From the sequence record PZ445412.1: 50,731 nt of DNA. One strand, 5' to 3'. The stretch comes from a phage. The notes below the pieces were generated by a model. It worked only from the letters and a program-made list of their open reading frames with translations. It had not been told where the DNA came from and searched no databases. Position 1 is the stretch's first letter; the number at the start of each line of letters is the position of its first letter. A program made the position numbers and the translations under genes. Shown piece after piece: positions 20,919-47,845 of the stretch.

Positions 20919-20938
20919 ATAGCACTTTTTGCTAAAAC
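20917..20938 (+). promoter_or_regulatory. conserved 22-bp box plus hairpin element
   Basis: AAATAGCACTTTTTGCTAAAAC; hairpin GATGCGTG-gtatacta-CACGCATC at 20949-20972. Confidence 0.6.
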
Positions 20939-37997: not shown

Positions 37998-38019
37998 GTT
38001 TTAACAAAAAGTGCTATTT
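37998..38019 (-). promoter_or_regulatory. conserved 22-bp box plus hairpin element
   Basis: Reverse complement AAATAGCACTTTTTGTTAAAAC; hairpin GCCGGAT-ctaga-ATCCGGC; CATAATGCAC; TCGAAAC. Confidence 0.6.
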
Positions 38020-41169: not shown

Positions 41170-41434
41170 AGATAGAAATTATTGAGTTTGTACGACTCCG
41201 GCGATACTTGCGCATAACAAACGTTAAGTTTTCGCCTTGCTGATGACCTAGCGTGATCGGCATTTCAGAACCATCACCGAATTCATCACCAATCTTTTTT
41301 GGCTTTTCTCGCCACGCGCAAATAAAACCAAATTTATCACGCGTGATATAGCGGTATATGTTAGGAAGGGGCAATTTCAACCCCTCGAAATCAACCTGTT
41401 GCGTGTAACTGCGAAAATTAAGCGTGGAATTCAT
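41150..41434 (-). CDS. hypothetical protein
   Basis: 94-aa ORF. Confidence 0.4.
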   Translation of the reverse strand: MNSTLNFRSYTQQVDFEGLKLPLPNIYRYITRDKFGFICAWREKPKKIGDEFGDGSEMPITLGHQQGENLTFVMRKYRRSRTNSIISIFGIVGE

Positions 41435-41573
41435 ACATCACCTCACCAAATTCACCAACGATTTGAGCCTTATAAAAACCGCCTTTACTTGCAATGTTAT
41501 ATGCTGCGTGCATTGGCATTTCGAATTGTTCAGCTTTGCTGTTTTCGTGCTCCCAGGTAATCAGTACGACCAT
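41418..41573 (-). CDS. hypothetical small protein, first gene of leftward operon
   Basis: Start MVVLITWEHE at 41573 with RBS GAGGAT after box 41629-41650. Confidence 0.4.
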   Translation of the reverse strand: MVVLITWEHENSKAEQFEMPMHAAYNIASKGGFYKAQIVGEFGEVMYEFHA

Positions 41574-41628
41574 TTTGTAATCCTCAATTCGTTTCGATGA
41601 AGTAATCATAGCAATTCGTGACTGATTG

Positions 41629-41650
41629 GTTTTAACAAAAAGTGCTATTC
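41629..41650 (-). promoter_or_regulatory. conserved 22-bp box, first element of leftward operon
   Basis: Box followed by CCAATCAG, CACGAATTGCTA and TCATCGAAACGAATTGAGG. Confidence 0.55.
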
Positions 41651-41656
41651 ATGCGA

Positions 41657-41684
41657 TAGACCGATTGGTCTAGACCGTTTGGTC
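41657..41684. promoter_or_regulatory. two abutting 14-bp palindromes (operator-like)
   Basis: AGACCGATTGGTCT and AGACCGTTTGGTCT just upstream of the first leftward box. Confidence 0.55.
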
Positions 41685-41721
41685 TAATGAACACATCGTT
41701 TTCTGTATCGAACGGATTCAC

Positions 41722-41815
41722 GATCACGTTATGCGATCACAATATGATCATGTTGATGATTGATGTGTGAGTTGATTTGATTTTATTTGATGGGATTTGA
41801 TTAGATTTGAGTAGC
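41722..41815. repeat. GATC cluster plus 10-bp-phased ATTTGA iterons (candidate origin or protein-binding array)
   Basis: Three GATC within 30 bp; ATTTGA at 41775, 41785, 41795, 41805 with exact 10-bp spacing. Confidence 0.6.
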
Positions 41816-42248
41816 TAGTGAGCAGAAATAATCACACCTTGCCGATCAGAGAAAACTTTTCCCGCAAAACATCACTCCAGGCTAGCTCTTGTCTCAATCT
41901 GTTTTCTGCTGTCTCAATTCGCACATTCCGCAAAAAAGCGAAACGGTTCACAAACAGAAAGAACAAATAAATCACCTATATAATAATAATAAAATCAACT
42001 AGTTAGTTATATATATCTATTTATGGTTATATATCTGTCTTAGTTGTTCTGTCTATATAGGCATACCCTGGTATATTTCAATTTATATATTGATATTGGT
42101 ATCTATGGGTATATATATCTATATATGCTCGATTTCCGGCGCAAACTGGTGAACAGGCGAAAAAGACAAGCGTTTTCATTGCTTTGCGTTGAAATTTGTC
42201 TCAAATCGCATATTGAAATGTATTAAGAACCAAAAGAACTTGACACGT

Positions 42249-42275
42249 TATAGAACAAGTTATAACATTCACGGC
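42249..42275 (+). promoter_or_regulatory. sigma70-like promoter candidate for rightward early genes
   Basis: TTGACA, 15-nt spacer, TATAAC; followed by ACCAATCAGGAGG leader. Confidence 0.35.
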
Positions 42276-42304
42276 GTACCAAAAACCAATCAGGAGGAAA
42301 AACA

Positions 42305-42760
42305 ATGGAAGAATTCGACTACATCCCAATGAAAGATTTCTGCAACGGCCTACGCGAAAAGGCAAAGAGCATTGCAGAAGGTGAACCACTAGTGATCCCG
42401 TTGGCTATGCTGGTTCAAAAACTGCATCCAGAAGATGCGAGAAAGGTTACAGCCAGCTACATAAGAACCATCCTTGTGCGCACACCTGAAATCAAAGAGA
42501 AAGGAAGCGTGAGCATCAAGAAGTGCAATTGCCCGGATCGCGGTGAATACCTTGAAGTGACGCTCAACGAAAACAAAAAGCGTCGAGTGATCACAAGTGA
42601 CGACCTTCCAGCAATCAAGGAGGCGGCTGTAAGTAGCGCTTTCGAGAAGTTTATGCACATTCAGCCTGACGTTACAGATCTTGAAGGTGATCAGTTAGTT
42701 GGTGCTACTGTAGCGTTGCGCCGCATGAAAAATCTGATTAAGTCAATGATTAAGGGGTGA
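42305..42760 (+). CDS. hypothetical protein, first gene of rightward early block
   Basis: 151 aa; RBS CAGGAGGA; TTGACA promoter-like hexamer upstream at 42249. Confidence 0.5.
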   Translation: MEEFDYIPMKDFCNGLREKAKSIAEGEPLVIPLAMLVQKLHPEDARKVTASYIRTILVRTPEIKEKGSVSIKKCNCPDRGEYLEVTLNENKKRRVITSDDLPAIKEAAVSSAFEKFMHIQPDVTDLEGDQLVGATVALRRMKNLIKSMIKG

Positions 42761-43405: not shown

Positions 43406-43427
43406 AAATAGCACTTTTTGTTAAAAC
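43406..43427 (+). promoter_or_regulatory. conserved 22-bp box plus hairpin element
   Basis: Box; hairpin GGGGT...ACCCC enclosing TTGACATAATT; TCGAAACGAAACGAGG. Confidence 0.6.
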
Positions 43428-43889: not shown

Positions 43890-44204
43890 ATGGAATTAGC
43901 ACGTAACGCGATTTATGGTTTACACCTCAAAGGCGGCAAAGGTTCAACTTATGCGCACCTGTTTCATGTTAACGATCGCGGCCAGGTTGATATTGCAATG
44001 TATGTTGACCAACTGGTTAAAGGTTGTGAGTCCGACAAGTTCAGACCGGACCTGATTGAATACGATCACACATACAGTCATGACCACTGGTTAGATGGTT
44101 ATAAGTTTACAATGCTGGATACCCATGTTATTGACACAGGCAAGTTAACTAATCGAGACTATAAGCGCATGGCTCGAAAGGTAGTTAAACTTAAAGCGCA
44201 ATAG
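43890..44204 (+). CDS. hypothetical protein
   Basis: 104 aa; preceded by GAATTG-type box 43813-43833. Confidence 0.45.
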   Translation: MELARNAIYGLHLKGGKGSTYAHLFHVNDRGQVDIAMYVDQLVKGCESDKFRPDLIEYDHTYSHDHWLDGYKFTMLDTHVIDTGKLTNRDYKRMARKVVKLKAQ

Positions 44205-47286: not shown

Positions 47287-47799
47287 ATGAAAGCTAAAAA
47301 TGATTTTTATAACTACCTGACGAAAGGTCGTGACTATACCGTTTTGAATAGCATTGATACTCTTTACCTGGTTGTTGCTGATAATGGCGTTAGAGTTTGG
47401 CTTGATAAAACGCTTTTCGAAAGCGAGCACCTAAGCAATGCAAAGCGAATAGCAGATGAAGCAAGCGCATTAGCAGAGCGTGAACGAATTCGCGATATAG
47501 TAGCGGAGCAGGTTAGAAATTCTTGTTTGCCTGGTGGCGATATCTTCAAATCAATGCGCGGTGAAATGACGGTTGGAATTAAAGATCGCGTAATTGCAAA
47601 ATCAGTTGATTCTGTAATTGAGAATGCGAAATTCAATGCAATGATTGAATCGGAGCCTAATGAATACATCAAAGTGCTGGAACAATTGCGCGAAGTATTG
47701 CGAGTGCCGGATGGTGAAAACATTGTGACTCATGCAAAGGTTGTAAGAACGTTGGCTGATGCTTTGCTTGACGTTTATCCAGGAATGAAGCGCAAATAG
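47287..47799 (+). CDS. hypothetical protein
   Basis: 170 aa, RBS AAGGAGA; stop embedded in box 47794-47815. Confidence 0.45.
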   Translation: MKAKNDFYNYLTKGRDYTVLNSIDTLYLVVADNGVRVWLDKTLFESEHLSNAKRIADEASALAERERIRDIVAEQVRNSCLPGGDIFKSMRGEMTVGIKDRVIAKSVDSVIENAKFNAMIESEPNEYIKVLEQLREVLRVPDGENIVTHAKVVRTLADALLDVYPGMKRK

Positions 47800-47845
47800 C
47801 ACTTTTTGTTAAAACTTCCGCGAGGACATTTGTTAAAGTGTCCTC
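47794..47845 (+). promoter_or_regulatory. conserved box plus class-B hairpin
   Basis: Box; hairpin GAGGACA-tttgttaaag-TGTCCTC. Confidence 0.6.

Follow-up and report, generated by a model that had tools for sequence, protein, structure and literature searches.

A conserved tandem of putative NemR-type operators beside the predicted first leftward promoter of Tlsvirus phages

Introduction

Which protein, if any, reads the pair of abutting dyads that sits in the longest non-coding stretch of a strictly virulent T1-like phage? The DNA analysed here (further referred to as the window) is the complete genome, 50,731 nucleotides in length, of Escherichia phage DanielBernoulli (Bas08, MZ501059.1; Drexlerviridae, Tempevirinae, Tlsvirus), rotated in such a way that subtracting 536 from a record coordinate yields the window coordinate. 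Its longest non-coding stretch is a 730 bp region from which a leftward and a rightward operon diverge, and in this region two adjacent dyads with identical arms are located shortly upstream of the leftward operon. An original prediction, made from the letters alone, proposed these dyads to be tandem operators for a dimeric helix-turn-helix regulator involved in the early-to-late switch of the phage. Knowledge of regulation in T1-like phages is scarce, and the 2024 re-annotation of phage TLS makes no mention of the dyads (PMC11447400). Here we report that both dyads match the operator of the host nemR gene, and that the host repressor NemR, rather than a phage protein, is their most likely binder.

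The dyad pair matches the operator of host nemR

The two 14-bp dyads, AGACCGATTGGTCT at 41658-41671 and AGACCGTTTGGTCT at 41672-41685, were found where the original prediction had located them, although the coordinates that it gave (41657-41684) were one base too low. It had also called them perfect palindromes, which applies to the arms (5-6 bp each) but not to the non-palindromic 4-bp centres (GATT and GTTT). Once the flanking T and A are counted (the local sequence reads ...CATGCGA TAGACCGATTGGTCTAGACCGTTTGGTCTA ATGAAC...), both units become 16-mers of the form TAGACC-GWTT-GGTCTA that overlap by the dinucleotide TA. Single dyads of the 5+4+5 type are commonplace in this genome (59 observed versus approximately 50 expected). 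One tandem pair whose units have the same arms is present, with an expectation of 4.7e-5 per genome and no occurrence in 301 first-order Markov simulations, and even when one mismatch is allowed AGACCNNNNGGTCT is found at just these two places in the 50.7-kb window.

In E. coli K-12, the 16-mer TAGACCGACTGGTCTA is located 14 bp upstream of the nemR start codon. Comparison of the phage units (TAGACCG-AT/TT-TGGTCTA) with this host site (TAGACCG-AC-TGGTCTA) revealed agreement at 14/14 outer positions, the asymmetric G7/T10 pair included. Dyad 1 moreover recurs with 16/16 positions ahead of the nemR orthologues of Providencia and Winslowiella, and, as an inverted site, in Kluyvera. Positions that vary among the phages are the two central ones only, and these same positions vary among the host operators. 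Both units therefore contain the dyad TAGACC-N4-GGTCTA of NemR-type operators (TAGACCGnnTGGTCTA in Enterobacterales) with all 14/14 specified positions.

The association of this sequence with nemR was further examined by scanning one genome per species for TAGACCGNNTGGTCTA, which yielded at least 120 loci, most of them being expected chance matches. Among the loci listed, at least 24 carry the start of a NemR-like gene no more than 150 bp downstream of the match. In Escherichia, Citrobacter, Kluyvera, Providencia, Winslowiella, an Enterobacterales metagenome-assembled genome and Crenobacter, the nemR promoter reads TTGCA(C/T)-box-(N)TAC..., with the box occupying the -35/-10 spacer and the ATG following 14-16 bp later. 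The centre of the box in these host promoters is either AC or AT, the latter being identical to phage unit 1. Among the matches listed, this association was also seen for more distant TetR genes in Verrucomicrobiota, Acetobacter, Rhodobacterales and Actinomycetota.

NemR itself is a TetR-family protein (Pfam TetR_N; structure 4yze) whose binding to DNA requires unmodified cysteines, and that is released by N-ethylmaleimide, methylglyoxal, quinones and hypochlorite. Umezawa et al. (2008) reportedly footprinted it on a "NemR box TAGACCnnnnGGTCTA". According to a review, NemR (also named YdhM) represses its own nemRA-gloA operon, which becomes derepressed by a point mutation in the binding site, while glyoxals and quinones release the repressor from DNA and reactive chlorine species are sensed by it as well (PMC5297802). 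Genomic SELEX (systematic evolution of ligands by exponential enrichment) revealed a single NemR target in E. coli (PMC5934670), and nemR belongs to the core genes of Escherichia and Salmonella (PMC6790063). Phages with the site thus infect hosts that possess the regulator, and in two of their host genera, Escherichia and Citrobacter, the operator was confirmed alongside a nemR orthologue.

No NemR or TetR homologue was detected in the window by tblastn with NemR, and no TetR_N domain was detected by Pfam among the candidate phage proteins tested. The lack of a phage TetR protein, in combination with the exact match to a host operator, makes host NemR (or possibly RutR) the most likely binder, and speaks against the phage-encoded regulator that had been envisaged at first. 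The literature search returned no account of a NemR or RutR box in any phage.

The phage sites thus resemble the host nemR operator in their 16-bp dyad TAGACCG-nn-TGGTCTA, in the two central positions that are free to vary, and in the conservation of that operator in the host genera. They differ from it in their layout, since the host carries one box within the spacer of its own promoter, whereas the phage carries two abutting boxes that overlap no promoter and have no regulator gene next to them. Tandem counterparts were found at bacterial TetR-type loci. Pairs with TAGACC/GGTCTA arms, a 14-bp offset and a shared TA are present in Christensenella (L123; directly after TTGACA-17-TAAGAT and ahead of a TetR_N gene), in [Clostridium] ultunense (L151; after TTGACA-17-TATAAT and ahead of a gene for the ATPase of an ATP-binding cassette transporter) and at a third locus (L143). 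At many other bacterial loci the two dyads are spaced 26 bp. The proposed tandem geometry for a dimeric helix-turn-helix protein was in this way upheld by bacterial promoters with the same abutting layout, although the phage pair has neither the sigma-70 promoter that L123 and L151 have at or just before their dyads, nor their cis TetR or efflux gene. With a 14-bp offset the inner half-sites GGTCT/AGACC come to lie 5 bp, or approximately half a helical turn, apart, so that two dimers could take different faces of the DNA. By analogy with established TetR-family structures, two dimers should then sit on roughly opposite faces of the helix at the phage pair. QacR on IR1 is the textbook example of such a two-dimer TetR-family operator.

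A related arrangement was noticed in two non-enterobacterial viral contigs from IMG/VR that are not T1-like (L024 2595-2660 and L046 4590-4640), in which two TAGACCGnnTGGTCTA dyads lie 26 bp apart on a TTGACA/TATAAT promoter, divergent from a gene for an XRE-type helix-turn-helix protein of 76-79 amino acids. Both belong to a small element with a replication-initiator gene, which may be another mobile element with this operator type. The XRE protein has no homologue in the window and hence provides no candidate for a phage binder.

The pair is conserved throughout Tlsvirus-type phages

Relatives of DanielBernoulli were taken from the phage collection and from DNA-pattern searches; the proteins flanking the region, bas08_0064 and bas08_0065, retrieved none when used as queries against IMG/VR. 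In the first eight Tlsvirus relatives the pair was unchanged (8/8), despite flanks that are only 80-91% identical and first leftward genes that differ. A flank-anchored pattern search of the phage collection, IMG/VR and metagenomes, in which the dyads themselves were left unspecified, led to one and the same interval of 33 nt in each Tlsvirus-like sequence. BLAST with the tandem 30-mer yielded 45 phage records, all of the Tlsvirus type, in 36 of which the 30-mer is identical, and the hosts of the phages bearing it are Salmonella, Escherichia and Citrobacter. Record OR786094.1, which goes under the name "Streptococcus phage MBBL140" (49,190 bp), matches the tandem dyad of Tlsvirus with 100% identity and probably represents a T1-like coliphage that was mislabelled or entered as a contaminant.

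Alignment of 17 distinct relatives revealed the dyad pair (4 variable columns out of 30) and the adjacent 21-nt box (2/21) to be the best-conserved elements of the region, as opposed to 34/56 variable columns in the 5′ untranslated region. Variation within the pair is confined to the second base of the centre, where A and T occur in every combination. Phage LL5 (L032) is the exception, in that its unit 2 reads TATACCGTTTGGTATA and has undergone a symmetric double change that retains the dyad.

Outside Tlsvirus the picture differs. The dyad is absent from the entire genomes of T1, a Webervirus and LF82-19, while three Vilniusvirus genomes (HazelMika, NBD2 and KLB19) carry one exact TAGACCGATTGGTCTA elsewhere in the same non-coding region, approximately 200 bp further in. 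The occurrence of this isolated but exact unit suggests that the 16-mer behaves as a functional and portable unit. In all four of these groups, Vilniusvirus included, the first leftward box is adjoined by 3-8 direct and inverted repeats of TTATTCCA/TGGAATA (Table 1), for which the small terminase subunit (TerS), a conserved phage regulator or another host factor are candidate binders.

Promoter context and neighbouring elements

The dyads were confirmed to lie in the gap between bas08_0064 and bas08_0065, inside the divergent control region and upstream of the first leftward box, as the original prediction had it. This adjacent 21-nt box forms part of a predicted leftward promoter (PL1), relative to whose predicted start the dyads are centred at approximately -66.5 and -80.5. 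Depending on how the edge of the box is defined, 7 to 9 bp separate it from unit 1, and this gap is constant in 17/17 sequences. Neither a promoter search nor inspection by eye revealed a sigma-70 promoter overlapping the dyads on either strand, and the sole consensus-like promoter of the region is a rightward one at 42240-42268, approximately 560 bp away. The coordinates of these features are given in Table 1.

Table 1. Features of the divergent control region of DanielBernoulli (window coordinates) and repeat arrays of other genera (locus handle with local coordinates).
Feature	Sequence	Position	Strand	Remarks
Dyad 1	TAGACCGATTGGTCTA	41657..41672		Putative NemR-box-type TetR-family operator, from sequence match
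Dyad 2	TAGACCGTTTGGTCTA	41671..41686		TA in common with dyad 1; centre-to-centre offset 14 bp
First leftward 21-nt box	aATAGCACTTTTTGTTAAAAC	41629..41650	-	Marbox-like; part of predicted leftward promoter PL1
Predicted extended -10	TGcTATGAT	41605..41613	-	Exactly 18 bp downstream of box; predicted start near 41598
GATC cluster	CGATCACGTTATGCGATCACAATATGATCATG	41721..41750		35 bp right of dyads, in stretch with mapped T1-like pac
bas08_0064		41418..41573 (ATG at 41573)	-	First gene of leftward operon; DUF7170 (annotation and Pfam)
bas08_0065		ATG at 42305	+	First rightward gene; DUF7174 (Pfam)
Repeat arrays	TTATTCCA/TGGAATA	L012/L011 junction (T1); L013 1575-1615 (Webervirus); L017 1580-1645 (LF82-19); L018 1575-1640 (Vilniusvirus)		

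The box next to the dyads is one of about 20-22 copies of the 21-nt repeat ATAGCACnnnTTGnTAAAA in the window (e.g. 41629-41648(-), 20919-20938(+), 43408-43427(+) and 47796-47815(+)), the consensus of which stems from the TLS paper (PMC11447400). Every well-formed copy consists of a 20-nt box followed at exactly 18 bp by a -10-like hexamer (e.g. CATAAT, TATAAT or TATAGT), a leader and a ribosome-binding site. The consensus for the soxbox and for MarA/SoxS/Rob binding is AYNGCACNNWNNRYYAAAYN (PMC2064960; PMC3709825), and the phage box ATAGCACTTTTTG(C/T)TAAAAC fits it at all specified positions except the last. With the marO marbox of E. coli, ATGCCACGTTTTGCTAAATC (L197 323-342, reverse strand), it is identical at 16/20 positions. 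Class II marbox promoters are said (Martin et al., 1999) to share a forward orientation and an 18-bp distance to the -10. Judged from sequence, the 21-nt boxes of the family look like class II promoters of the MarA/SoxS/Rob type, and such an assignment, if true, would answer the question of the TLS authors on these repeats and would place the NemR boxes directly upstream of such a promoter. The literature search found no transcriptome or start-site data for Drexlerviridae.

In many of the box promoters (such as the copies at 38017(-), 31965(+) and 30607(+)) the 18-bp spacer forms a GC-rich hairpin, e.g. gccggatctagaatccggc. The "terminators" annotated just ahead of T1 genes may be embedded in box promoters.

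Both the TLS re-annotation and the SU57 paper place the T1-like pac within this untranslated region, the pac sites of TLS and T1 having been positioned by coarse restriction mapping (PMC11447400; PMC7718038). The end of the TLS record corresponds to position 41769 of the window, approximately 85 bp to the right of the dyads, and a literature search for a sequence-level definition of pac in T1-like phages found none. Beside the mapped pac region lies a cluster of three GATC sites within 30 bp, which are contained in a 13-bp tandem repeat (CGATCACGTTATG / CGATCACAATATG / ATCATG) and of which a comparable version is kept in T1, LF82-19 and Vilniusvirus. DanielBernoulli encodes its own Dam methylase. 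The cluster recalls the pac site of phage P1, in which TGATCA hexamers are regulated by Dam.

Some further features of the non-coding region were noted. A 12-nt perfect inverted repeat (CTGATTGGTTTT / AAAACCAATCAG, at 41622-41633 and 42282-42293) brackets the entire region, the first genes of the two divergent operons each having one arm in their 5′ leader, and ACCAATCAGGAG is found again in the leaders of other box promoters. An AT-rich stretch at 41975-42130, in which TATATATCTA motifs recur alongside inverted repeats that are long but imperfect, is a candidate for an origin of replication or for a bending region, and a block resembling it is also present in T1, LF82-19 and the Webervirus.

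Discussion

Identity with a host operator, conservation of both sequence and spacing, a layout suited to two dimers, the lack of a phage TetR protein and the location beside PL1 are all established by sequence. On these grounds, we consider it probable that the dyad pair represents a set of NemR-type operators, most likely bound by host NemR and with RutR as a possible second binder. Binding of the pair by a host TetR protein of the NemR type is likely in its own right, whereas gating of PL1 by the bound protein is a possibility that we regard with some doubt. The assignment as a NemR box is based on comparative genomics together with the RutR paper (PMC2475637).

As to function, we infer both binding in the infected cell and an effect on transcription or packaging. 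Upon arrival of the phage genome, host NemR would occupy the pair immediately upstream of PL1 and, once bound, would damp this first leftward promoter by hindering whatever binds the box and the DNA upstream of it. Alternatively, bound NemR could make the neighbouring pac and GATC region less accessible. Such a block might be lifted under electrophile or chlorine stress of the host, NemR then being inactivated, or once the replicated phage copies come to outnumber the small NemR pool.

Several points weigh against this explanation. The host box lies between -35 and -10 whereas the phage dyads lie near -66 and -80, which is a poor position for simple repression; with the operator outside the core promoter, plain occlusion of RNA polymerase is unlikely. 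The two changes in unit 2 of phage LL5 do not favour it either, and the lack of the dyad in T1, the Webervirus and LF82-19 implies that the element is not essential to the life cycle of the family. In addition, this half-site serves other TetR-family proteins as well, and no TetR gene was seen in L024 and L046.

The early-to-late switch of the original prediction, taken as a general role, finds no support in dyads that occur at one locus, versus approximately 20 box promoters, and that overlap no promoter; locally, the pair may act on the first leftward promoter or in the nearby pac region. As in the OR/OL regions of lambdoid phages with CI/Cro, a divergent control region holds several dyad operators next to one another. 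In DanielBernoulli, however, the divergent promoters are not overlapped by the dyads, no repressor gene is adjacent (the flanking DUF7170 and DUF7174 proteins are not helix-turn-helix proteins according to Pfam), and the operator sequence is that of a host TetR protein.

Other proteins could read the pair, and since the sites could serve several purposes, the probabilities assigned to the different readings overlap. The closest competitor is RutR, a TetR-family pyrimidine sensor of the host that is paralogous to NemR and is released from DNA by uracil and thymine, and through which the locus could be coupled to the pyrimidine pool of the cell as the phage degrades the cellular DNA. In chromatin immunoprecipitation on microarrays (ChIP-chip), the very host 16-mer with identical arms, TAGACCGACTGGTCTA at ydhM (= nemR), was listed as a RutR target, and high-affinity gel shifts were obtained for 16/20 targets (PMC2475637). 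The RutR consensus is TTGACCAnnTGGTCAA, with positions 4 and 13 as the key ones, and many RutR sites lie away from promoters without an evident transcriptional effect (PMC2475637). Both phage units have the geometry of a RutR box and match this consensus at 11/14 positions with A4 and T13 kept, a score equalled by the host ydhM site, but they differ from it at positions 2, 7 and 15 while matching the NemR-type operator at 14/14. A site selected for RutR should drift to TTGACCA..TGGTCAA, as was seen for TTGACCAACTGGTTAA at 44005-44020 inside bas08_0070, which matches 13/14 positions and which at the homologous position of a related metagenome contig (L069 4132-4147) is a perfect 14/14 match, TTGACCAGATGGTCAA. 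The presence of this near-consensus site lends the RutR reading some support. Given furthermore that RutR binding at the host nemR promoter was reported without a regulatory effect (PMC5297802), we regard RutR instead of NemR as an unlikely reader of the pair. A phage-encoded dimeric helix-turn-helix regulator controlling the divergent early operons appears somewhat less likely still. The dyad geometry would suit it, and candidates exist in bas08_0033 (annotated as "transcriptional regulator", with a Cro/YdaS-type helix-turn-helix below the Pfam cut-off) and in approximately 50 small proteins of unknown function, but the exact identity with a host operator would be left unexplained. The dyads, moreover, form a single locus far from the bas08_0033 promoter, and orthologues of this protein (47-58% identity) are present in T1, the Webervirus, LF82-19 and Vilniusvirus, three of which four lack the dyad. 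No DanielBernoulli protein is common only with the dyad-bearing Vilniusvirus: a phyletic profile of its 91 proteins against HazelMika, T1, the Webervirus and LF82-19 revealed none specific to the dyad-bearing genus, which neither identifies nor excludes a binder. As a separate observation on RutR-like sequences, the window contains nine matches to the RutR consensus with up to three mismatches versus 2.6 expected, and the site at 44005-44020 is coding, so that coding constraint could account for its match.

The pair might also be part of pac, serving as recognition repeats for the small terminase subunit, given that the pac of both TLS and T1 has been assigned to this untranslated region by restriction mapping, that the end of the TLS record is so near, that the exact T1-like pac sequence has never been defined and that other genera hold TTATTCCA/TGGAATA arrays at the equivalent position by the first leftward box. 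We deem this improbable, since TerS (of the P22-gp3 type) retains 46-50% identity between genera irrespective of whether they carry the dyads, Vilniusvirus has the TATTCC array plus a single dyad elsewhere, and the identity with a host operator would be pure coincidence. Lower still do we rate a role as nucleic-acid structure, in which a cruciform or a pair of small hairpins, in DNA or RNA, would act as terminator, single-strand initiation signal or processing site. The symmetric alteration of both unit 2 arms in LL5 (G>T and C>A), with pairing kept, and a z of -2.9 for the folded DNA versus shuffles are in line with it, but symmetric changes can also originate from template switching within a dyad, both hairpins together amount to just -6.8 kcal/mol without a subsequent T-run, and no promoter is positioned to transcribe them. 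The "loop" bases G7 and T9-T10, furthermore, are invariant, as the operator consensus but not a hairpin requires. Possible but less likely, finally, is a decoy function in which the pair would titrate NemR and derepress the host nemRA-gloA operon, with the degradation of the host chromosome by T1-type phages, as it appears from the reference list of PMC11447400, arguing against it.

Two other bacterial operator types were considered and rejected. An array of MetJ met-boxes (tandem 8-bp AGACGTCT) was dismissed on its period, which is 14 and not 8 in the phage, with the best units in an 8-bp frame reaching 5/8 by eye. The junction of the two units reads GGTCTAGACC, with the GTnTAnAC core of the HutC/GntR type, but a central dyad of this kind is contradicted by the lone Vilniusvirus unit, which has no junction, and by LL5, which breaks the junction and keeps the symmetry of unit 2.

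Host-factor sites in the control regions of phages are known from the LexA boxes of temperate phages and from the IHF and DnaA sites of lambda. NemR-type operators in DanielBernoulli would likewise give a phage regulatory region the site of a host regulator through which the state of the host could be read, but they differ in that the phage is strictly virulent and that the host factor is a TetR repressor sensing electrophiles and bleach. The present sequences suggest a host NemR operator that has been borrowed, duplicated and placed upstream of a different kind of promoter in a virulent phage, with a regulator that would act in trans from the chromosome of the host.

The exact operator pair of a host repressor in 45 genomes of a virulent genus provides a specific and cheaply testable hypothesis. 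Should binding fail to be observed, the dyad pair would still constitute a strongly conserved, unexplained element at the control hub of the family. If NemR does bind, a lytic phage would be using a redox/electrophile sensor of its host, which would matter for work with the BASEL collection, for phage therapy where tissue is inflamed or the setting chlorinated (hypochlorite then inactivating NemR) and for the definition of the pac region. It is a rather speculative extension that Tlsvirus reads host stress in two ways at once, with the NemR pair gating PL1 or packaging and the approximately 20 boxes of all T1-like phages serving as MarA/SoxS/Rob class II promoters. If this were true, however, the early programme of a "simple" lytic phage family would be plugged into the Mar/Sox/Rob and NemR stress circuitry of its host.

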